A DNA stretch of 62,271 nucleotides, the filler included. It is 6 parts of 6 records of this genome, joined end to end, with 100 filler letters (N's around TTAATTAATTAA, not from the genome) between each part and the next. Parts side by side here need not be neighbours in the genome. Positions count along the whole stretch, not along the records: positions 1 to 16,406 come from SRR33789315_7; 5 more parts are not named here. One strand, written 5' to 3'. The notes under the pieces were generated by a model that saw nothing but the letters and a program-made list of their open reading frames with translations, did not search any database and had not been told where the DNA came from. The position numbers and the translations under genes are program-made. Shown piece by piece: positions 6,768 to 16,506 of this stretch (the stretch's first letter is position 1; each line of letters starts with the position of its first letter).

Positions 6768-7469
6768 TTATTACCCACTTAAAGCAAATTCTGCGGCGGC
6801 TCCCGTAAAATCAAAAATTAGGGTATAACTCTATTTCCTTTATAGCTTTTTCCTAAAATATTTTCCTTCATCGCCCTGATCTTGTCCAGTCCCAAATATT
6901 ATATATCCTACTGGTTCTATAGAGAAACTCATCTTTAAACCTTAACCTTAATAGAAATATATCTTTCCATAAAATACTCTGTACTAAATTATGAAGTATC
7001 CTACCCTTAATCTGTTCTTTGTTCTTTCTGATTTTTACTTACTATCCATTTAAAGAGAATCAACCTTGAGACGTGTAATTAAATGCTTTAGTATAGCTAT
7101 TCACTAAAGTATTTTAAACCGCTCTAAAATGTCATATGTAGAGCAGTCAAATCAAACATGACTTGCAGTATTAAACAAGTATTTAAGATTTTCTCTCCCC
7201 CTTAAAAATTAACTTCTTTAAAAACAAAAATTATAAGTTTTTAGTTAATAGTATATTAACTAAAAATACCCATTAATGGGTATTGCATCGCTGGTTTTTT
7301 ACTTTTACTTTTAAACAGCTAAAATTCAACAAGTTAATAAAATTGAATATGATGCAATTAAAAGTACAATTAAGAACAGCCTTAAAATACGTAGTACTTA
7401 ACATGCCATTTTGGGCATAAATGTGTGTATTGATTGCGCATATAAACAAGTTAGCAAACATTAAAATAA

Positions 7470-7901
7470 ATGTCGAAAAAAAATTCTATTTTAAATTGTC
7501 CAAGATGCTTAGGTAAAGGTTTTGTTAACGAGTCAGATATTCTTAGACTAGACAGGTATGTTGAATGGGTTGCAGGCCTTTGTGGTTATTGTGAAGGTTT
7601 AGGAAAGATAAACCCTGAGGAATTTAAAACCACAGAAGTTAACGATATTTATCTATCTTCTGATTTAACAAGAGAGGAAAGAAAGCAATATTTAAATAAA
7701 AACAAAAATGCACTTGAAAGAGCTGCCCAATATCAAATTGATCTAGATATAACTAAAAGTTTAGTGATAAAGTTCCATTTCAAAGAGAAAAAAACTATTG
7801 AAGAAATTCTTGAAATATTTCAATTACCAAAAGAAATTGGTGATTCAAGTAGAGAAAATTTTAAGGCTTTCATATCTAGAGTGATAAGTAAAAGCACATA
7901 A
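7470..7901 (+). CDS. Hypothetical protein with DnaJ-type zinc-finger motifs (cassette 1)
   Basis: CPRCLGKG and CGYCEGLG (CxxCxGxG x2); starts 20 nt after the GTT crossover site. Confidence 0.7.
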   Translation: MSKKNSILNCPRCLGKGFVNESDILRLDRYVEWVAGLCGYCEGLGKINPEEFKTTEVNDIYLSSDLTREERKQYLNKNKNALERAAQYQIDLDITKSLVIKFHFKEKKTIEEILEIFQLPKEIGDSSRENFKAFISRVISKST

Positions 7902-7910
7902 AATCTGATT

Positions 7911-8915
7911 ATGCAGTATTCTAATAAAAGATATGCAATAGTAAACAAAGTAACTCCTGAAATAGCTTTATATTTTGATGGTGTTTTTTGCTTAGATGGC
8001 AGTACAAAAAGTGTTTTCCCAACAGGGAATAATTTTTATTTACCAGAAATTGGAAGAGAAGTTCCAAACTTAACATTGGATACAAATAAAACTGCAGGAA
8101 TAGATAATTGGATTTTCAAGAAAGTCATTTCCATACAGGCTGCACATCTTTTCAACATACACTTTTCTGGCAAAGCAAGAATTGATATTGATAAAGTAGC
8201 AGATTACGTTCAAATTCGAAAACTACAATATTTCAGTGACTTCAAAGAGGTTATAATTAATGAATCAATTGAATATTCAGACGATGATATAATTTTTTAT
8301 TTCAAAAATTTTCTGATAATGGCCACAACAAACATATTTAGAAAAACTGGAAGATATATTACACCAGTATTCCAAGACTTTAATAATAAAGAATGGTTTA
8401 ATTCTAGCAACTTCACTACACCAAATCTTCAAAATGGAATAGAACTGTCATTGTTGAATTTATCAATTATTGACAGCAACAAACTAGAATGGTTACACGT
8501 GAAGGAGGTCAGAGAAGATGTTGAATCGATAAAAAAGCTTAGAAATCTTCGTCTTTTCCTAGAAGATATCGATAGTTCAAAAGGGCAAGATTATGTTGAG
8601 GATATTATTCTGCAAAAAATTGAAAGCTATGAAATAGCCGCAAAAAAACACGGTTTTAACCTAAAAAAAGATATTATTAATGCTTTTTTAGACCTTGAAC
8701 ACATTCCAAATATTATAGCATTAACAGTTTTATCTATTTTTAATCAATCAATAGCTCCAGCAGCAGCCGTAATTGGGTTAACAGAAATCATTGGTGCTGC
8801 AAAAGAAATTGGGAAAACCACAGTAGAAATAAAAAATAAAAATATTTCTAAAGGACTGGATCCAAGTCATCAAGACGTAGAGTATTTAATGAGTATAAAG
8901 GAAAAATTAGAATAA
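7911..8915 (+). CDS. Hypothetical protein (cassette 1, second gene)
   Basis: 334-aa AT-rich ORF 9 nt after the previous stop; hydrophobic C-terminal segment; the stop abuts an attC-like site. Confidence 0.7.
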   Translation: MQYSNKRYAIVNKVTPEIALYFDGVFCLDGSTKSVFPTGNNFYLPEIGREVPNLTLDTNKTAGIDNWIFKKVISIQAAHLFNIHFSGKARIDIDKVADYVQIRKLQYFSDFKEVIINESIEYSDDDIIFYFKNFLIMATTNIFRKTGRYITPVFQDFNNKEWFNSSNFTTPNLQNGIELSLLNLSIIDSNKLEWLHVKEVREDVESIKKLRNLRLFLEDIDSSKGQDYVEDIILQKIESYEIAAKKHGFNLKKDIINAFLDLEHIPNIIALTVLSIFNQSIAPAAAVIGLTEIIGAAKEIGKTTVEIKNKNISKGLDPSHQDVEYLMSIKEKLE

Positions 8916-8919
8916 TAAC

Positions 8920-9054
8920 GTTTGCTAACAACGTGTATAATTAATTGCTGTAGCTGTTTAAGACGACGATCTTTGCGTACTTTAACTATATTGTTTTGCG
9001 GAATATGAATCGTGTACTTTTACGCAACTAACCATACACGAACACGTTACCTGC
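8920..9054 (+). repeat. attC-like recombination site 1
   Basis: GCTAAC...GTT boundaries; inner arms CGTGTATAATTAATTGC (from 8932) and GCAACTAACCATACACG (to 9040) form an imperfect hairpin; about 130 bp. Confidence 0.7.
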
Positions 9055-9156
9055 AAGCCTAAAATACGACACAGCAAGAATGAACGACAGATTAAAATAT
9101 AAACAAGTGACTGGACAAATGAACCATCAGACAGCCGACCCGAAAGCCAACGCTTC

Positions 9157-9276
9157 TGTATTTTTATTTTTCCCCACCGCACGTTTTTTAAAAACAATTT
9201 TAGCCAGCCGCACAAATGGCACATGTGCTTTTGCCCTGACACACAAAACCGCTCCTTTGGTAAAAGCAAAAGAGCC
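9157..9276 (+). repeat. Left structured leader of cassette 2 (IR arms A and B plus hairpin)
   Basis: TGTATTTTTATTTTT 9157-9171 and TAAAAACAATTTT 9189-9201 are perfect reverse complements of 15996-16010 and 15961-15973. Hairpin GGC-ACATG-TGCTTTTGCC..GGTAAAAGCA-AAAGA-GCC at 9218-9276. Confidence 0.7.
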
Positions 9277-9321
9277 TTTTTTGGCAACCTCCTCTATTTC
9301 AAAACATAATAACTTTACATC

Positions 9322-10995
9322 ATGAGAAAATCAAAAACAACAAACGGACTCACAGTTAATGCTATTGCTGGCTCCTATGCCGTTATCCTAGGTTTCGATA
9401 TGGAACCGAACAACTGTGAGGGATTACTAGGGTTTTCAATTCACAGGACAGATCATTCTGAAAACGAATCATATTATATGAAGGGTGTGAAAACCTTTGA
9501 GGAGACAGACCCTCAATTTCCATCAGGTTCACAATATTCGACTAAAGACCACCCTTGGCAGAGTTTTCAGTGGGCAGACTATTCTGCAAAGCCCGGACAA
9601 GTTTACACTTATACTATTTCGGCATTAAAAGGAAAGCCGACAAAATTGATCCCGTTTGCAACAACCACGATAAAAGTTACAACGGAAACAGAAGAAAATG
9701 AAGTTCACAATGTCTATTTCAACAGAGGCATATCAGCCGTTCAAGAATATGTTCGAAGATTTGGTAATGAAAAGCCCGCAGAGGATGATGCACCTGATAG
9801 TCCAAAATTTAAATGGCTATCTAGAGGACTTTATGAGGCCCTGGAAGATTTCGTTGGTTCATGTATACCAGGCAGACACAGCTTGAGAATTTCAGCTTAT
9901 GAATTCAATTATCGTCCATTTCTCAGACTTTTAAAGAGTTGTATTGAAAATGGGGTTGACATTAAAATTATTTATGATGCCAGAAAAGATTCGCCTAAAA
10001 TTAAAAATGAAGAAAGGATAATTGAATGTGGGTTAGAAGATTACTGCTTTCCACGTAAAGAAGGTAAATCATACATATCTCACAATAAGTTCATTATTAA
10101 ACTTGAAAATGACACACCAATTAGTGTTTGGACTGGCGGAACAAATTTTTCAGTTGGAGGAATCTTTGGTCATTCAAATGTAGCACATGTAATTAGAGAA
10201 GAAAAAACTGCTATGAAATTTATGGAATATTGGAACGAATTAAGTCAAGATAAGAAGACAGCAGTTATTAAAAATGATGTAGAAAGAATATCACCTACAC
10301 CATTTATCCCAATAATGATTGGAGAACAATGTGTTTTTAGTCCAAGAAAGAATCTGGATGCATTGAATTTATACAGTGACTTAGCCTTATCAGCTAAAAA
10401 TGGATTATTTATAACGTTTGCGTTTGGCATAAACGACCTATTTAAAAATGTTTACCAAAATAGTAATGCCACTCTAAGGTTTGCCCTTTTAGAAAAGAAA
10501 ACACGACCAATGAAAAAAGACTCACCTGAAAGAAAGGCAGAAGAGGATGCTATTGACCAACTAAGATTTAAAGCTGAAAATATTTTTGCAATTGGTGACT
10601 TTATAAAGACAAATAAATTTGACGGTTGGGTTAAAGAGACACTTTCAGGTTTAAATCACAATGTACAGTACGTTCACAATAAATTTATGCTGATTGATCC
10701 ATTGAGTGTAAATCCTATTGTAATTACAGGTTCAGCAAATTTCAGTGAAGCTTCTACTACTAAAAATGATGAGAACATGGTAATTATTTGTGGAGATACA
10801 AGAGTTGCTGATATTTATTTAGGAGAATACATGAGATTATGGAATCATCATGCCTTTAGAGAATTTCTCAATAAATCAAATAATATAATTGCTGGATTTA
10901 AACCCAATCATCTTAGAACAGATGATTGGTGGAGGGATTACTATAAAAACAACGATAAGGCAGCAAGAAGAAAATATTTTTCAAATACCAAATAA
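9322..10995 (+). CDS. Phospholipase D-superfamily (Nuc-like) protein with two HKD-type motifs
   Basis: SHNKFIIK..VWTGGTNFS and VHNKFMLID..ITGSANFS..NDEN; N-terminal beta-rich region (WADYSAKPGQVYTYTI). Confidence 0.85.
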   Translation: MRKSKTTNGLTVNAIAGSYAVILGFDMEPNNCEGLLGFSIHRTDHSENESYYMKGVKTFEETDPQFPSGSQYSTKDHPWQSFQWADYSAKPGQVYTYTISALKGKPTKLIPFATTTIKVTTETEENEVHNVYFNRGISAVQEYVRRFGNEKPAEDDAPDSPKFKWLSRGLYEALEDFVGSCIPGRHSLRISAYEFNYRPFLRLLKSCIENGVDIKIIYDARKDSPKIKNEERIIECGLEDYCFPRKEGKSYISHNKFIIKLENDTPISVWTGGTNFSVGGIFGHSNVAHVIREEKTAMKFMEYWNELSQDKKTAVIKNDVERISPTPFIPIMIGEQCVFSPRKNLDALNLYSDLALSAKNGLFITFAFGINDLFKNVYQNSNATLRFALLEKKTRPMKKDSPERKAEEDAIDQLRFKAENIFAIGDFIKTNKFDGWVKETLSGLNHNVQYVHNKFMLIDPLSVNPIVITGSANFSEASTTKNDENMVIICGDTRVADIYLGEYMRLWNHHAFREFLNKSNNIIAGFKPNHLRTDDWWRDYYKNNDKAARRKYFSNTK

Positions 10996-11002
10996 AGGAC
11001 AC

Positions 11003-11353
11003 ATGAGAACAACTAAAGAAGTTTGGGAGCATCATTGCATCGCTTTTGCTAATGCAAATATTGATGATTTAATGTTTGATTTTGCAGATGATGCAATCTA
11101 TGTAACAACAAATAATGTTATTAAAGGCAAAGACAACATTCGTAAACAATATGATAACCACTTTAAATCCCTCGAAACAGGTTCAACATCAAAAATAATC
11201 AGTGAGACTATTGAGGGTGAAATAGTATTCTTTGAATGGACTGCCGATACACCTTCAATCTATATCCATGATGGTGTTGATACTTTCGTAATTAGAAATG
11301 GTTTTATTGTTGCACAAACTGTAAGAGGAACAGTAATTAGCAAAGCAAAATAA
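11003..11353 (+). CDS. SnoaL/NTF2-like protein
   Basis: Likely start is ATG 11003 (7 nt after the PLD stop) rather than 10889; HH..AF..ANIDDLM.DFADDA, DGVDTFVIRNG.IVAQT. Confidence 0.8.
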   Translation: MRTTKEVWEHHCIAFANANIDDLMFDFADDAIYVTTNNVIKGKDNIRKQYDNHFKSLETGSTSKIISETIEGEIVFFEWTADTPSIYIHDGVDTFVIRNGFIVAQTVRGTVISKAK

Positions 11354-11365
11354 TATTTTAAAATT

Positions 11366-13879
11366 ATGCATAAAAACATTCTTTCTTTTTGGCAACATTT
11401 AGAGTCTTTGCCTAAAGGTCATTCCGACAGATTAACTCCAAGAGTATGCACACTTTTGCAAGATACTTTTGAAAAATGGCATTCTAAACCCAAGTGGGTA
11501 GGCTTTGCTGAAATGGGTCATTTATTTGACTATTATAAAAATGAGGAGCTATCTAAGATCAAGTCTCTTTCAGTAGCTGAAAGGAAAGGATTAGCTGTAA
11601 AAAAACTATTTGAATTTATTTCAGACCCAATTAATAGAGAATCTAAAGGGGCAATGGAAATTAATCCTATGGAATTAATTGTTGGTACACTTCCACCATA
11701 TTCAGTTGGTCAAGGAAAAGAGCTTATTAGATATTTAACTGAGGATGAAAGACTTTATTGGGAATTAAGATATTATAATGAGTGGTCGCCTTTTGGTCAC
11801 ATAGTACCAGATCACGATATAATTTTAAAAAAGGGAATTTTAGGGATAATTACGGACTGCCAAGAAAAACTAAATCACTTAATACCTAATCAGTTAAAGC
11901 AGAAACAATTCTACCAATCAGTTATCAATTCTTTAGAAGGGGTGCTATTTTATATAAATGCCTATTCAGACTTCATTTTAGAATATTCTAATTCATTTCA
12001 TCCAAATGATGAAAGGGCGATTAATCTTAAATCTATCTCTGAAAGATTACGAGAATACCCTGCAAAACCTTCTGAAACATTTACAGATGCTTTGCAGTCG
12101 ATTCATATCATGCATTGTGCCCTTCATTGGTCGGGCGAAATTGTGCCAATTGGTCGCCTTGACCAATTGCTCAATGAATTTTATGTTAAAGATTTGGAGA
12201 AAGGCATCATTACTAAAGAAAAGGCACAGGAGACTCTTGATTGCTTTTGGATTAAACTAGACGAAAAGGTTGTACACAACAGAAGATTTATCGAAGACAG
12301 ATTTACTTCGTCAGATGGTGCTTTACTAGGCACAGGTGGTCCCAGTAATTTCGACCAAGGGGCATTGGTTAATCAGTGGATGCAACAGGTAACTATTGGA
12401 GGAGTAATTGCTAATAATAACGATGAAGCAACAGATGCAGTAAATGAAATCACATTTATGTGTATGGATTCAGCAAGGCGATTACCTCTAAATAGCCCAA
12501 CGCTTGATTTAAGAGTTCATGCAAAAAGTGATAGTAAATTATTTGAAGCTGCCGCAAAAACTATTTTAAGTGGTGGTGCTCACCCCATCTTAATGAATGA
12601 TGATAAAATTATTCCTGCATTACAGCATAAAACCGGAGGTTATGTCGAACTTAAAAGTGCAAGAAACTATGCATGTGACGGCTGTTACGAAACACTATTC
12701 GCAGGTGAAACTGAGTTTAGTTTTGGATTTGTTGGAGCGCTTGATGTTTTGGAAAAGACTCTGAACAGTGGAGCTGGATTTGCCTTCTCAGGTAGTACAT
12801 TTTTGAGGGGAAGCAAGGCTAGTTTACGAACCAAACAAGCTAAAGACCTTTCCACATTTGATGAATTCTGGTCGATATTTGAACAGCATCTTTTACTCGG
12901 CTGTCACAAATTTTTACACGGGATTCTTTCTGCTTATGGAAGTAAAGAGAATGTTTCCCCTTCTCCATTATTATCAGCAATGATTAATGGCTGTATTGAT
13001 ACTGGAAGAGATTTAGCTGGCGGTGGTTCAAGATACCATCTATTTTCACCTTTAATGACAGGAATCAGCACAGCAACAGATTCATTATACGTAATTAAGA
13101 AACTAGTATTTAATGACAACCTATTTTCACTTGAGGAATTGGTTTCATGTTTGAGAACAAATTGGGGAAGAAACAAAGAAGTAGTAGGTCTTAAAATATC
13201 TGATGAAAGGATAAATGATATTAGAAATCTGTGTATAAGTCAACCTAAATTCGGTCAGGGACATAAATATGTTGATGAACTTGCTTACGAATTAATCAAC
13301 TCATTTTACGATTCACTTCAAATAGCGAGAAAAGATAAAGTGCATGAAGAAAATTGGAAGCGACTTCAAAATCAATACGACATAGATGGACGTAAATTTG
13401 AAATTTTAATTGCTCCAGGTGTAGGCACTTTTGAGCAGTACAATTTTTCAGGCTCTTTTGTCGGGGCAACTCCAGACGGAAGATACGCCTTTGATTCTAT
13501 TGCTTCGGATTTATCCCCTTCTCCTTATCATTCAGATCAATCAATTCCTCAAGTCCCAGCAATAAAATTTATAGATGGATTGGAAAGTTATTCCGATTAC
13601 TCCATAAATCTGCTTTCCGATGGTGCACCGCCTGATTTTAATATCAAAGAAGACTTTGATGAGGTTGCTTTAACCAAAATAATAAAAGCCTTTGCTGAAG
13701 GTCATGGAGGCAATATGCTTACTATAACAGTAAGTGATCCTGAATCTTTTAAAAATGCCCAAGATAATCCAGATGATTACAATTTGCTCAGAGTAAGGAT
13801 GGGAGGATGGACAGAGTTTTTTATTTCATTGTTTCCAGCCCTACAAGAACAGCATAAAAGAAGGCCATTGTTTAAATAA
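11366..13879 (+). CDS. Glycyl radical enzyme (PFL2/diol dehydratase-like superfamily) with divergent Gly loop
   Basis: ELIVG, GHIVPD, GRLDQ, QQVTIGG, Cys loop YACDGCYE, GATPDGR, C-terminal AQDNPDDYNLLRVRMGGWTEFF (canonical RVxG[YF]). Confidence 0.9.
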   Translation: MHKNILSFWQHLESLPKGHSDRLTPRVCTLLQDTFEKWHSKPKWVGFAEMGHLFDYYKNEELSKIKSLSVAERKGLAVKKLFEFISDPINRESKGAMEINPMELIVGTLPPYSVGQGKELIRYLTEDERLYWELRYYNEWSPFGHIVPDHDIILKKGILGIITDCQEKLNHLIPNQLKQKQFYQSVINSLEGVLFYINAYSDFILEYSNSFHPNDERAINLKSISERLREYPAKPSETFTDALQSIHIMHCALHWSGEIVPIGRLDQLLNEFYVKDLEKGIITKEKAQETLDCFWIKLDEKVVHNRRFIEDRFTSSDGALLGTGGPSNFDQGALVNQWMQQVTIGGVIANNNDEATDAVNEITFMCMDSARRLPLNSPTLDLRVHAKSDSKLFEAAAKTILSGGAHPILMNDDKIIPALQHKTGGYVELKSARNYACDGCYETLFAGETEFSFGFVGALDVLEKTLNSGAGFAFSGSTFLRGSKASLRTKQAKDLSTFDEFWSIFEQHLLLGCHKFLHGILSAYGSKENVSPSPLLSAMINGCIDTGRDLAGGGSRYHLFSPLMTGISTATDSLYVIKKLVFNDNLFSLEELVSCLRTNWGRNKEVVGLKISDERINDIRNLCISQPKFGQGHKYVDELAYELINSFYDSLQIARKDKVHEENWKRLQNQYDIDGRKFEILIAPGVGTFEQYNFSGSFVGATPDGRYAFDSIASDLSPSPYHSDQSIPQVPAIKFIDGLESYSDYSINLLSDGAPPDFNIKEDFDEVALTKIIKAFAEGHGGNMLTITVSDPESFKNAQDNPDDYNLLRVRMGGWTEFFISLFPALQEQHKRRPLFK

Positions 13880-13888
13880 TATTATATC

Positions 13889-15871
13889 ATGGAAAAAAAG
13901 ACATACATACCAAGACCGCTTCCAATATTAGATAGTCCTTATCAAAGTGGTATTTCTGATCCCCAGTTTCCTTTGCTTCCTTCTACTTTTGAATTGGAGA
14001 ATGATAAAGACTATGAATTGTTCCGCGGTCGTGTAGATAAACAAGGTTATGCAGCAATTTTGAAGGCAAACATTGCAACTAAAAATAAATTAGAGCTAAA
14101 AATTTTACTTCAATTATTATCAGATTTAGCCTACTATGAAATGACTCGAACACCGCAATCTGATAAAAAAGAAGATTTGGCAAGAATTCCAGATTCATTG
14201 GCGCAAATACCTGAATCTTGGCGAGTGTCATTCACCATTGCGTTCGGCCATTCTCTATTTGTTGATAAATTTGGTAATGATAGATTTGGTTTAAGTTTTA
14301 GAAAACCCAAAAACTTAAAAATTATTCCAAAATTTCCTGGTGACGAATTTGACCCATTAAATTCAGTTTCTGACATATTGATATTAGTCGCTAGCGATCA
14401 TCCTTATGTTAACCTAGCAATTACCAGAACCCTTGCCGAATATGTAAACAAGAAATTTGCAGCTAAACAAAATAAAAACAAAGTAGAGAATGTTTTTCAA
14501 GTTATAAGTGTTCAACAAGGATTTGGTCGTCCCGATTCGAAGGAGTTTTTAAAGTTTAATGACGGAATAGACAATCTTAGAGCAAATATCGACTTAGAAA
14601 AATTAGTTTATGTTGATGAAAATTGTAATGAACCTGAATGGTGTATTGGAGGTTCGTACTTGGTTTATAAAAAGATTAGAGAAATGATGCCAGTTTGGGA
14701 GGCATTTTCAAAATCAACCCAAGAAGGTATTATCGGCAGAGAAAAAGCTAGTAGCTTACCACTTTCTAATAATAAAGAAGGGATAAATAACTTAACACCT
14801 GTTTATCCTGACCCCACAGACCCTAAAGATGGTCCATTAAATGCACACATCAGAAAGGTACAACCAAGGAGACCTAATCCTGACTTATTTGGTGAAAATG
14901 ATTTGAATAGAAGATTTTTAAGAAGACCATATCCATTTTTTGATGGAGTTGATGAAAATGGAAAGTCAATCAATGGTCTTCATTTCATTGCATTTATGAA
15001 AAGTATTCAAAATCAATTTGAGCATGTAACGAATATGTGGCAAATGAATCCAAATTTTCCAATTGAAGGTACTGGCATTGACGCTTTATATGCGAAAGAA
15101 GTTTTAAAAAGTATAGATGGAGGTTACTATTTCTGTCCACCTGCGAGAAAAACAAAAGATGATTTCATTGGGTCTGGGTTGTTTGAAGAATATGTAAAAG
15201 CTCCTTACAAAATTCCACAACATATTTATGGCTATGGGATAACATTTGTTGATATTGACGAAACAATTTTCAATACTATCGCTACTATCAAAGTAATAAA
15301 AGGAGGTATTGTAATAAAATCATTAGACAATAAAGAGTTTAATGATTACAATTTGCAAGAGGGCGAATCTTATGATTTTGGCGAGTTCAGAGATTCAGAA
15401 ACCTTTCTAAACACATCCAAACCCATAGTTTCAATAGTTTCCGAGATAAAAAAAATACTAAATATAATTTCTTCTAATTCAGAAGGGAGCAGGATTGTAT
15501 TTCTAACTGCACGAAGTGATTTTGATAACAAGGAAAGGTTTTTAAATACTTTTCGAAAGTATGGTATAGACATAGATTCTTCTAGAATGTATGTTGAAAG
15601 ATCAGGAAATCTCCAGACAGGAACTGTTGCTGAAAAAAAGAAGAAAATCGTATTGGAGTACTTGAAGGATGGTAAATATAGAAGGGTTAGACTAATTGAT
15701 GATAATCAAGTCAATCTTGATGAATTCCTAACTATTAAAAGGTCATTAGATTCGGGCATTATTGAACTAATCAAAAAAAATCATTTTTTGGATGACTTAA
15801 CCGATCCAATTGAATTCTATGCTTATCATGTAAACCATGAAGGAGAAATGAAATTGATAGGAAAAGAATAA
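13889..15871 (+). CDS. DyP-type heme peroxidase fused to C-terminal HAD-superfamily phosphatase
   Basis: DyP: FNDGIDN (distal Asp), GGSYLVYKKI, AHIRKVQPR (proximal His), RRPYPF (distal Arg), GLHFIAF, GGYYFCPP. HAD: FVDIDETIF, LTARSD, KKK, LIDDN. Confidence 0.85.
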   Translation: MEKKTYIPRPLPILDSPYQSGISDPQFPLLPSTFELENDKDYELFRGRVDKQGYAAILKANIATKNKLELKILLQLLSDLAYYEMTRTPQSDKKEDLARIPDSLAQIPESWRVSFTIAFGHSLFVDKFGNDRFGLSFRKPKNLKIIPKFPGDEFDPLNSVSDILILVASDHPYVNLAITRTLAEYVNKKFAAKQNKNKVENVFQVISVQQGFGRPDSKEFLKFNDGIDNLRANIDLEKLVYVDENCNEPEWCIGGSYLVYKKIREMMPVWEAFSKSTQEGIIGREKASSLPLSNNKEGINNLTPVYPDPTDPKDGPLNAHIRKVQPRRPNPDLFGENDLNRRFLRRPYPFFDGVDENGKSINGLHFIAFMKSIQNQFEHVTNMWQMNPNFPIEGTGIDALYAKEVLKSIDGGYYFCPPARKTKDDFIGSGLFEEYVKAPYKIPQHIYGYGITFVDIDETIFNTIATIKVIKGGIVIKSLDNKEFNDYNLQEGESYDFGEFRDSETFLNTSKPIVSIVSEIKKILNIISSNSEGSRIVFLTARSDFDNKERFLNTFRKYGIDIDSSRMYVERSGNLQTGTVAEKKKKIVLEYLKDGKYRRVRLIDDNQVNLDEFLTIKRSLDSGIIELIKKNHFLDDLTDPIEFYAYHVNHEGEMKLIGKE

Positions 15872-15881
15872 GCCAACCCTA

Positions 15882-16010
15882 AAAGCAAGCACATTTGCAA
15901 TTCGCACAAGCCAATGCACAAACCGAAAATTGCAAAAGAGCTTGCTTTGCCAACGCTTCAAAAATTGTTTTTATAAAATTTGCCAACTTTTCAAAAAAAA
16001 TAAAAATACA
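15882..16010 (+). repeat. Right structured trailer of cassette 2 (hairpin plus IR arms B' and A')
   Basis: Hairpin AAAGCAAGC-ACATT-TGCAATT..AATTGCA-AAAGA-GCTTGCTTT 15882-15948; GCCAACGCTTC 15949-15959 is a direct repeat of 9146-9156; IR arms at 15961-15973 and 15996-16010. Confidence 0.7.
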
Positions 16011-16097
16011 CCGACATACAGCCCGACAAACACAGCAGACAATGACAGAGAAACTCAATATTGACAATGTTACAGCGACACGAAAGAAGGAAGGCCA

Positions 16098-16300
16098 GCA
16101 GGTAACAATGTATATAAAACATAGCTATTATAGGCTTTAACAAAGGTTTTCGTGTGTTTGCGAAGACCGCCAAATTTTTAAATTTGGCTTTTTGAGAAAT
16201 TTAAGATAAAAAGAAAATTTAAAAATTCGGCTCGTGTATAATCCGAAACCATAGCGTCTTTTTACACGCTACGTTTCATATACGGAGACGTTGGAGCACA
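16098..16300 (+). repeat. attC-like recombination site 2
   Basis: GCAGGTAAC..GTATATAAAACATAGC pairs with GCTACGTTTCATATAC..CGTT; inner arms GCCAAATTTTTAAATTT/AAATTTAAAAATTCGGC; about 200 bp imperfect palindrome. Confidence 0.7.
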
Positions 16301-16406
16301 TTCAGCTAAAGCTGACCAAAGTTGCTACACAACTACGTTGTTCCCGCCCCTTTGGTTATGTGCTCCAACGCCCCGCTATACCAAATCACATATAACTTTC
16401 TCTATA

Positions 16407-16506
16407 NNNNNNNNNNNNNNNNNNNNNNNNNNNNNNNNNNNNNNNNNNNNTTAATTAATTAANNNNNNNNNNNNNNNNNNNNNNNNNNNNNNNNNNNNNN
16501 NNNNNN
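16407..16506. other. Artificial contig linker
   Basis: 44 N + TTAATTAATTAA (stop codons in all six frames) + 44 N. Confidence 0.98.

Follow-up and report, generated by a model that had tools for sequence, protein, structure and literature searches.

Nested complementary helices and a covarying hairpin motif inside the end boxes of long integron-like cassettes

We analysed a 62,271-nt stretch of DNA (hereafter 'the window'), a stitched draft in which six contigs are joined by linkers of the form N44-TTAATTAATTAA-N44, and we report that a 7,061-bp unit in its first contig (positions 1-16406) carries an elaborate architecture at its two ends. The unit is one cassette of an integron-like array, and the complementary 'R-box pair' at 9046/16106 constitutes its end boxes. 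Inside the end boxes lie two AT-only long-range helices, split by a loop that is conserved as sequence, and innermost, next to the cargo genes, a hairpin occurs twice, with GCCAACGCA-type boxes on either side of each copy. This hairpin belongs to a widespread, covarying motif made of a stem, a 5x5 internal loop and a second stem. The array is of a known kind, that is, integron-like or like a cluster of attC sites lacking integrase (CALIN); what is new is what lies inside the R-box pair, and searches of open-access text and of Rfam turned up neither the arm architecture nor the hairpin family. The host is probably a member of Bacteroidota, judging from the occurrence of the same motif and the same chassis elsewhere. 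Our favoured, though tentative, reading is that the arms fold in single-stranded DNA and thereby zip together the ends of a long cassette.

The features of the cassette are given below, where 'co-fold' refers to the predicted joint fold of the two arms, and G125, G489 and G317 are a phage-like 65-kb contig and two Bacteroidota chromosomes that carry related long cassettes.

9046..9059, plus strand: left end box (R'), GTTACCTGCAAGCC, which covaries with the right box in G125, G489 and G317
9060..9156, plus strand: left linker, A-rich and T-poor, with CCGAC/CCAAC boxes, ending in GCCAACGCTTC (9146-9156)
9157..9171, plus strand: left AT helix, outer arm, TGTATTTTTATTTTT, paired in the co-fold
9172..9183, plus strand: internal loop, left side, with a core CCCACCGCAC also present in G125, G489 and G317
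9184..9201, plus strand: left AT helix, inner arm, TTTTTTAAAAACAATTTT, paired in the co-fold
9210..9284, plus strand: left hairpin, internal loop ACATG/AAAGA (model R1, 48.9 bits, E 1e-9)
9307..9314, plus strand: TAACTTTA, promoter-like box, 7 nt before the start codon
9322..15871, plus strand: cargo, four genes
15880..15950, plus strand: right hairpin, internal loop ACATT/AAAGA (model R1, 85.2 bits)
15949..15959, plus strand: box GCCAACGCTTC, direct repeat of 9146-9156
15961..15978, plus strand: right AT helix, inner arm, paired in the co-fold
15979..15995, plus strand: internal loop, right side, of the TTTGCCAACTTTTC type (TCCTTCCCTTC in relatives)
15996..16010, plus strand: right AT helix, outer arm, paired in the co-fold
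16011..16092, plus strand: right linker, A-rich and T-poor
16093..16106, plus strand: right end box (R''), GGCCAGCAGGTAAC

The end-box sequence GTTACCTGC has no exact copy in the window other than that at 9046 and, as its complement, that at 16098. Both linkers have the same strand rich in A and poor in T and are therefore unable to pair with each other, and the left linker is homologous to the left arm of one of the G125 cassettes (cassette 2). The outer stem of the right hairpin begins 10 nt after the stop codon of the last cargo gene.

The inner elements had been predicted from the letters of the window, and they are present where that original prediction placed them: two perfect complementary pairs, 9157-9171 with 15996-16010 (15 nt) and 9189-9201 with 15961-15973 (13 nt), a copy of GCCAACGCTTC at each of positions 9146 and 15949, and same-orientation hairpins at 9218-9276 and 15882-15948. 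If one mismatch is allowed, the inner complementary pair grows to 18 nt, and at 87% it reaches 23 nt. At up to one mismatch, GCCAACGCTTC occurs nowhere else in the window (two matches, against a shuffle mean of 0.65, with 11 of 100 shuffles reaching two), and GCACATKTGC and GCAAAAGAGC have exact matches in the 62-kb window at the two hairpins only. Reverse-complement local alignment of the flanks gives a score of 32, compared with 20.1 +/- 2.2 for 200 mononucleotide shuffles (maximum 28). Co-folding of the arms as DNA, proposed with the prediction, gives a gain over separate folds of -19.4 kcal/mol, compared with -7.3 +/- 1.7 kcal/mol for dinucleotide shuffles, and the minimum-energy co-fold recovers all three nested helices with a gain better than that of 100/100 shuffles. 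The AT-rich matches thus do not arise at the rate seen in shuffled flanks, alignment and co-fold both exceeding every shuffle, even though AT-rich 13-14-mers of these blocks also match unrelated places in the window. The right hairpin, folded alone as DNA, gives -16.4 kcal/mol (z -4.2). A chance origin of the repeats is ruled out by the shuffle tests together with the conservation of the elements in other cassettes.

Comparison of the window cassette with those of G125, G489 and G317 shows that the arms vary in sequence and keep their complementarity. End-box positions 5 and 14 change from C:G to G:C between the window and G125, with pairing kept. At least three versions of the AT helices exist, and in each the two arms complement one another: CAATTTT/AAAATTG in the window, CCATTTT/AAAATGG in G125, and a third version in G489 and G317. 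The inner helix of G125 is paired at 20/20 positions, and the outer helix of G317 is paired at 16/16. Complementarity made of T runs against A runs comes cheaply; the informative, interspersed bases match. In the four cassettes the arm co-fold gains are -19.4, -29.7, -26.5 and -25.4 kcal/mol, compared with about -7 +/- 1.7 kcal/mol for shuffled arms (0/100, 0/100, 0/60 and 0/60 shuffles as good), whereas cross pairs between window and G125 arms gain only -13.6 and -14.2 kcal/mol. The loop between the helices is conserved as sequence: its left side has CCCACCGCAC, and its right side a run like TCCTTCCCTTC, in G125, G489 and G317. The panhandle proposed in the original prediction, for single-stranded DNA or RNA, is therefore supported as regards nested, ordered helices at the cassette ends with compensatory changes in four cassettes; either molecule may form the fold.

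The same comparison bears on the proposal that the arms are protein-binding sites in double-stranded DNA, analogous to phage attP arms, in which the boxes GCCAACGCA, CCACCGCAC and CCGAC, together with the AT blocks, would bind a recombinase, an accessory factor or a nucleoid protein, either assembling a recombination complex or silencing the cargo by looping. This proposal has in its favour the three to five similar boxes per arm, which have one orientation and bracket every hairpin, the conservation as sequence of the internal-loop runs CCCACCGCAC and TCCTTCCCTTC, and an Xer-like recombinase gene located 150 nt from the left arm in one viral record (G129). We nevertheless consider it improbable: AT helices and hairpin stems that vary yet stay complementary are the signature of pairing, not of a fixed protein site, and short cassettes of the same arrays move without these elements.

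The hairpin shows the same signature in a far larger set of copies. A pattern scan of viral contigs returned 13 loci, of which 8 were judged by eye to be true members, and a looser scan added none; an exact pattern gave 39 hits in 27 of 401 sampled Bacteroidota genomes, with 0 hits for a reversed-pattern control. For 12 hand-cut copies, 89.6% of cells pair, compared with 64.9% in shuffles and 30-46% in slid controls, and 11 of 16 pairs change on both sides. For 52 distinct copies, aligned to the model (a procedure that favours structure) and including one reverse-strand hit and two weak hits, 91.5% of cells pair, compared with 62.8% in shuffles and 29-45% in slid controls, and both partners change in 15 of the 16 pairs. 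In 49/52 copies the internal loop reads ACATT/AAAGA; the closing pairs are near invariant, and the terminal loop of the family is 76% A+C. The ACATG of the left hairpin of the window is a one-base variant of the family ACATT; position 9225 is a T in every look-alike contig examined in two metagenomes. Between the window and locus L001, whose cargo is closely related, 0/42 stem and internal-loop positions of the hairpin differ, compared with 6/25 terminal-loop positions. The boxes of the GCCAACGCA type that bracket every copy follow one consensus and are thus not target duplications.

The original prediction had allowed that the hairpin might be an already described family. Rfam searches gave no hits for the whole window at the gathering score, and gave chance-level hits only (E at least 0.15) for both flanks at permissive settings; on this evidence a known RNA family is ruled out, and covariation, as described above, is found. 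Two aberrant copies were observed. In G126 (L050 6446-6517), a variant right hairpin has AATGT in place of AAAGA, and the internal loop becomes part of a perfect 15-bp stem, GGCACATTTGGCATT / AATGCCAAATGTGCC. In G209 (L142 9720-9800), the hairpin is circularly permuted: its 3' half precedes the 5' half, a loop caps what is elsewhere the outer stem, and what is elsewhere the inner stem closes the whole; the ACATT/AAAGA loop and both stems are kept.

The occurrence of these elements goes with cassette size. Hairpins are present in 6/6 delimited cassettes of at least 2.8 kb (2,834-8,036 bp) and in 0/18 delimited cassettes of at most 2.5 kb (103-2,459 bp), which also have no AT helices, where cassettes were delimited partly by eye, long overlapping 12-of-14 pairs were dropped as chance, and one 3.5-kb G126 cassette having only the variant right hairpin was excluded. 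The AT helices are present in 4/4 cassettes of at least 5.4 kb and in 0/2 cassettes of 2.8-2.9 kb. The association of the hairpins with large cargo, a feature of the original prediction, is thereby borne out.

The long cassettes share arms and differ in cargo. In L001, which has a cargo 90% identical in protein to that of the window, the right arm aligns up to GGCCAGCAGGTAAC, and homology is lost at the next base. In G125, which encodes a YqaJ recombinase, a DnaB helicase and a DNA polymerase III beta subunit and has a CRISPR array, cassette 2 (5,439 bp) has both arms homologous to those of the window and a different cargo, a type III restriction-modification system; its right-arm homology likewise ends exactly after the end box (...GTAAC / ...CTAAC). 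The G489 cassette (8,036 bp) carries an HTH protein, an AAA_15 ATPase and a type III restriction-modification system, and the G317 cassette (5,456 bp) carries an HTH protein, a methylase and a type IIG enzyme. None of these cargoes is homologous to that of the window; the G489 cargo had been considered as a homologue, its proteins being alike in size, but was found on checking to have no homology. Cargo swap between conserved arms, which the original prediction had named as a test, is thus found, with unrelated cargo in four long cassettes. We conclude, judging by these sequence comparisons, that the cassette is mobile and that the arms are a shared chassis. Homology between related right arms ends after AAC, the start of the downstream site (for the same cassette, the comparison covers the right end), and this break would fit an AA|C crossover on this strand, or site replacement. 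In G125, a CRISPR-like array of six or seven copies of ~37-nt repeats (L048 10400-10880) lies between cassettes; after it comes ~300 nt of AT-rich sequence, a block duplicated ahead of both long cassettes.

The positions of the homology breaks also bear on what the hairpins are. The suggestion that the hairpins are a second, nested recombination site is not supported: no homology break is seen at a hairpin, the arms run through to the R boxes, and hairpins also occur singly. For similar reasons we regard as very improbable that the hairpins are the ends of an IS200/IS605-type transposon, or of another hairpin-bounded unit, that brought the cargo into an existing cassette. Such an element would account for the similar subterminal hairpins that one strand has at each cargo end and for the box-like direct repeats beside them. 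However, there is no Y1 transposase in the cargo here or in relatives, conservation extends outward from the hairpins and has its limit at the end boxes and not at the hairpins, the boxes of all copies fit a single family consensus instead of being copy-specific duplications, and the hairpins are not confined to pairs. IS200/IS605 ends carry same-strand imperfect hairpins near both ends, recognised as folded single-stranded DNA; besides the missing transposase and the unit boundaries at end boxes, the hairpins here differ from them in being 3-4 times longer.

A sequencing-run search identified two metagenomes with small shares of window sequence, in which the flanks have 10-80x more contig depth than the genes; this suggests no more than that many contigs there contain flank-like sequence. 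In one run (X2), a single contig runs from 9046-9064 directly into 16091-16106, omitting 7,026 nt (shorter side 21 nt, likeness threshold 80); this may reflect an artefact of repeats or a relative of the cassette that is empty.

The cassette is one of three successive units, 7450/8929, 9046/16106 and 16290/16372 (the third read by eye), each having a start complementary to its own end, and the units are separated by imperfect palindromes, AAC-(1-2 nt)-stem...stem-(4-6 nt)-GTT, read partly by eye. The complementarity of GTTACCTGC and GCAGGTAAC had first suggested an invertible segment or a transposon with terminal inverted repeats; this was dropped because each neighbouring unit has its own complementary end pair, with a palindrome between units. 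The neighbouring features are as follows.

7450..8929, plus strand: upstream neighbour cassette, 1,480 bp, with open reading frames (ORFs) at 7470-7901 and 7911-8915
8927..9048, plus strand: attC-like imperfect palindrome A, AAC-AA-CGTGTAT...ATACACG-AACAC-GTT
16104..16292, plus strand: attC-like palindrome B, AAC-AA-TGTATAT...ATATAC-GGAGAC-GTT
16290..16372, plus strand: geneless cassette of ~83 nt, GTTGGAGCACAT...ATGTGCTCCAAC, read partly by eye
16407..16506: first of the five linkers, N44-TTAATTAATTAA-N44

The upstream cassette starts with GTTAGCAAACATTA and ends with the complement TAACGTTTGCTAAC (13/14 positions complementary); neither a hairpin, by model search, nor AT helices were found in it. 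After the geneless cassette a further site begins, and then the contig ends, 300 nt past the right flank; a break within the array is expected if sites recur across the genome. Palindrome A folds end to end, more cleanly on the minus strand, and its fold is no better than that of shuffles; palindrome B is not closed end to end in its minimum-energy fold; and the site of locus L029 folds end to end with z -3.3. Palindromic sites are present also in G126 and G328, and the same array layout is found in G125, G126, G127 and the Bacteroidota chromosomes G489, G328, G209 and G317. In more than 20 units, 12-13 of 14 end positions are complementary, with a pair specific to each cassette.

Three side observations concern the sites and the start of the array. 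First, at position 11 of the 14-nt end stem, the left end has A and the right end has C in 21/22 pairs compared by eye (7450/8929 and 9046/16106 of the window, together with L034, L048, L049 and L140-L146). The coding strand thus has an A.C mismatch where the opposite strand has a G.T wobble, an asymmetry that gives polarity to an otherwise near-symmetric site. Second, in the small G125 cassettes, ORFs are antisense to the site polarity. Third, 700 nt without a gene (6768-7470) precede the first cassette and contain, at ~7245-7262, a minimal end-box pair, GTTAATAGTATATTAAC, followed by a perfect palindrome, ATACCCATTAATGGGTAT; the stretch may represent decayed cassettes or the docking end of the array.

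The array resembles integrons and CALIN in several respects: promoter-poor arrays of units, imperfect palindromes with AAC...GTT outer boxes, first bases of each unit complementary to its own inner box, and cassettes that occur in varied contexts, break exactly at the box and are rich in defence genes. The original prediction held that ordinary attC sites do not explain the structure; for the R-box pair this does not hold, the pair being ordinary integron cassette anatomy, and for the elements inside the pair, which are new, it does. The usual view of integron-type systems confines them to short cassettes, most with a single gene. The present array differs from integrons in having cassettes of 5-8 kb with several genes, compared with median coding lengths of 362-575 bp given in the portion of PMC5371416 consulted, in having a site with an asymmetric inner loop (1-2 vs 4-6 nt) and a conserved A.C end-stem mismatch, and in showing its homology break at the AAC box and not at the canonical G|TT. 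It also differs in having no IntI that we found, which is compatible with the CALIN label. Contig 1 (cut at 16406) has no recombinase among its ORFs of at least 100 aa, and PF00589 was not found in G125-G128, four of the five viral records searched. The fifth, G129, encodes a 294-aa Xer-like recombinase, transcribed divergently from the left arm; its score with TIGR02249 is 133.9 bits, below the integron-integrase cut-off of 265, in two pieces that lack the middle part of the model. The arm helices and hairpins have no counterpart in the parts of the integron literature examined.

According to the reading that we favour, the arms fold as single-stranded DNA, and the hairpins would be protein-recognised elements that delimit the fold. 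After excision, the recombination hairpin of the circle would be lengthened outward by ~35 base pairs through the arms; while the cassette is in the array, the arms would draw its two crossover points to one another although it is several times the ordinary length. In the excised circle the arms would be only ~330-400 nt apart, on either side of the site, and the fold thus need not span 7 kb. A role in DNA is favoured by the coaxial nesting of the helices with the recombination boxes, by the lack of excess of wobbles over A.C mismatches in hairpin stems (14 G.T vs 14 A.C), by the predicted location of the left arm upstream of the cargo promoter, by the tracking of the end box by hairpin orientation, and by the link to cassette length. 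The evidence for the promoter is a perfect TAnnTTTG, which we take to be the Bacteroidota -7 promoter box consensus, between left hairpin and start codon in 7/16 left-type copies, with TAACTTTA of the window a 7/8 match; its location after the left hairpin would place the left arm upstream of the cargo's own promoter. A sigma-70 promoter and terminator scan gave counts equal to those of shuffles. The evidence for orientation is three copies with reversed cargo, in which the hairpin follows the end box and not the gene.

The principal competing account, a serious one although we think it rather unlikely, acts at the level of RNA. It holds that the hairpins are protein-recognised stem-loops that end or stabilise transcripts, the right copy ending the cargo message and the left copy stopping array read-through before the cargo promoter, and that in read-through RNA the AT blocks pair into a stalk that is cut, in the manner of RNase III and as with the stems around ribosomal RNA, to free the cargo message. 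Right-type copies do begin within ~10 nt of a stop codon, the loops and linkers are A/C-rich on the sense strand, and the permuted copy L142 keeps its internal loop, as protein-bound RNA motifs can; in addition, the TAnnTTTG after left-type copies gives a stem-loop-plus-promoter layout like that of PeSL cassettes, the closest precedent for this account, as far as these are described in the part of PMC2839356 consulted. However, the stem is followed by no U-tract, and the 21-26-nt loops and 5x5 internal loop are unlike those of intrinsic terminators; the equal numbers of wobbles and A.C mismatches also argue against RNA, as does the behaviour of the three reversed-cargo copies; a promoter after the left hairpin would leave the left AT block outside the cargo message; and the nesting of the helices with the recombination boxes is left unexplained.

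Several observations weigh against folding in single-stranded DNA as the function of the arms. Some concern transcription: ~18/44 copies of the hairpin have their GCACAT 15-20 nt past the end of a same-strand ORF (about a dozen of the 44 lie 25-80 nt upstream of a same-strand start, and three have a convergent gene), and most copies are sense to the neighbouring gene, as a transcript end would be. Others concern the strand: the A-rich, T-poor bias of the linkers is on the coding strand, the predicted pair probabilities of the AT helices are equal on both strands, and palindrome A has three more A.C mismatches that are G.T wobbles on the opposite strand; with the position-11 wobble, this indicates that the sites may fold in the strand opposite to the one suited to the linkers. 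The left hairpin alone, as DNA, gives -7.4 kcal/mol (z -0.6) and a minimum-energy structure that is a different fold, and hairpins that occur singly are not an obligate pair. Folding across 5-8 kb needs long single-stranded DNA. The four cassettes with AT helices are a small number and may share ancestry, in which case they would not be four independent events, and the size counts depend on cassette limits set in part by eye. Finally, no sequencing read gives evidence of folding, excision or circles, and the X2 joint is too weak to serve as evidence of an empty or excised cassette.

Somewhat more doubtful, although we hold it possible, is the extended proposal that the arms are a dedicated long-cassette chassis of Bacteroidota and their phages, in which a covarying, protein-recognised single-strand fold, composed of the end-box stem, the two AT helices with their conserved loop and the twin hairpins, would overcome the length limit of integron-type recombination and an Xer-type system would move 5-8-kb defence operons between chromosomes and phages. 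The portion of Loot et al. 2017 consulted (PMC5371416) describes reduced excision for very large cassettes with poorly folding sites. In the parts consulted, other sources describe a CALIN with two methylase genes in a phage of Polaribacter, a member of Bacteroidota (PMC9892861), and defence cassettes in Vibrio integrons (preprint 10.1101/2024.07.02.601686); the same preprint places Bacteroidota among clades previously found to be without integrons, and PMC8618304 lists integrons as detected in Bacteroidota.

Two further systems invite comparison. In rRNA processing stems, complementary segments several kilobases apart, flanking a long stretch, pair in one strand and are cut by RNase III; these stems act in RNA, whereas the arms here may fold in either molecule. 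The PeSL elements of T4-type phages, as far as the consulted text of Arbiol et al. 2010 (PMC2839356) describes them, are alike in that a stem-loop and a promoter flank swapped non-essential genes; they are terminators with sigma-70-like promoters, exchange by recombination between repeats, and can yield small circles on exchange. As against PeSL so described, the hairpin here has an invariant 5x5 loop, a large A/C-rich terminal loop and no U-tract, and lies inside site-specific-recombination cassettes together with long-range complementary helices.

The cargo of the window cassette comprises four genes, encoding a PLD-like protein (9322-10995), a SnoaL-like protein (ending at 11353), a pyruvate-formate-lyase-like (PFL) protein (11366-13879) and a fusion of DyP peroxidase and HAD (13889-15871). 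PADLOC gave weak DrmC/PbeA hits for the operon and matched no system beyond them. In Pedobacter (L003, 4854-14483), the SnoaL/PFL/DyP trio is present in a different, non-cassette context, following a trypsin-EAD1 protein, a STAND NTPase and a trypsin-endonuclease fusion. The PLD homologues of L006 and L007, at 80% identity, lack an arm; the gene immediately upstream of them encodes a cupin. The PLD/SnoaL/PFL/DyP operon is a candidate for an undescribed defence or conflict system, on the grounds that it is carried in a chassis that otherwise holds restriction-modification systems. A pattern search of 124 genomes of the class and phylum of genome G001 matched G001 alone, with two copies, both on short contigs and hence of little value for placing the host; the left flank was not found in G001, and BLAST of the right arm against 61 relatives of G001 gave low-complexity matches only.

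Multi-gene restriction-modification operons, and one unexplained four-gene operon, are thus carried in 5-8 kb cassettes, and these long cassettes share a folding architecture that short cassettes of the same arrays lack. Whatever the mechanism, the hairpin is a widespread, strongly covarying structured motif that has no Rfam entry. If the arms make long cassettes recombine, the exchange of whole defence systems between Bacteroidota chromosomes and phages would have an explanation, and the hairpin model and arm layout would provide a sequence handle for finding such cargo.

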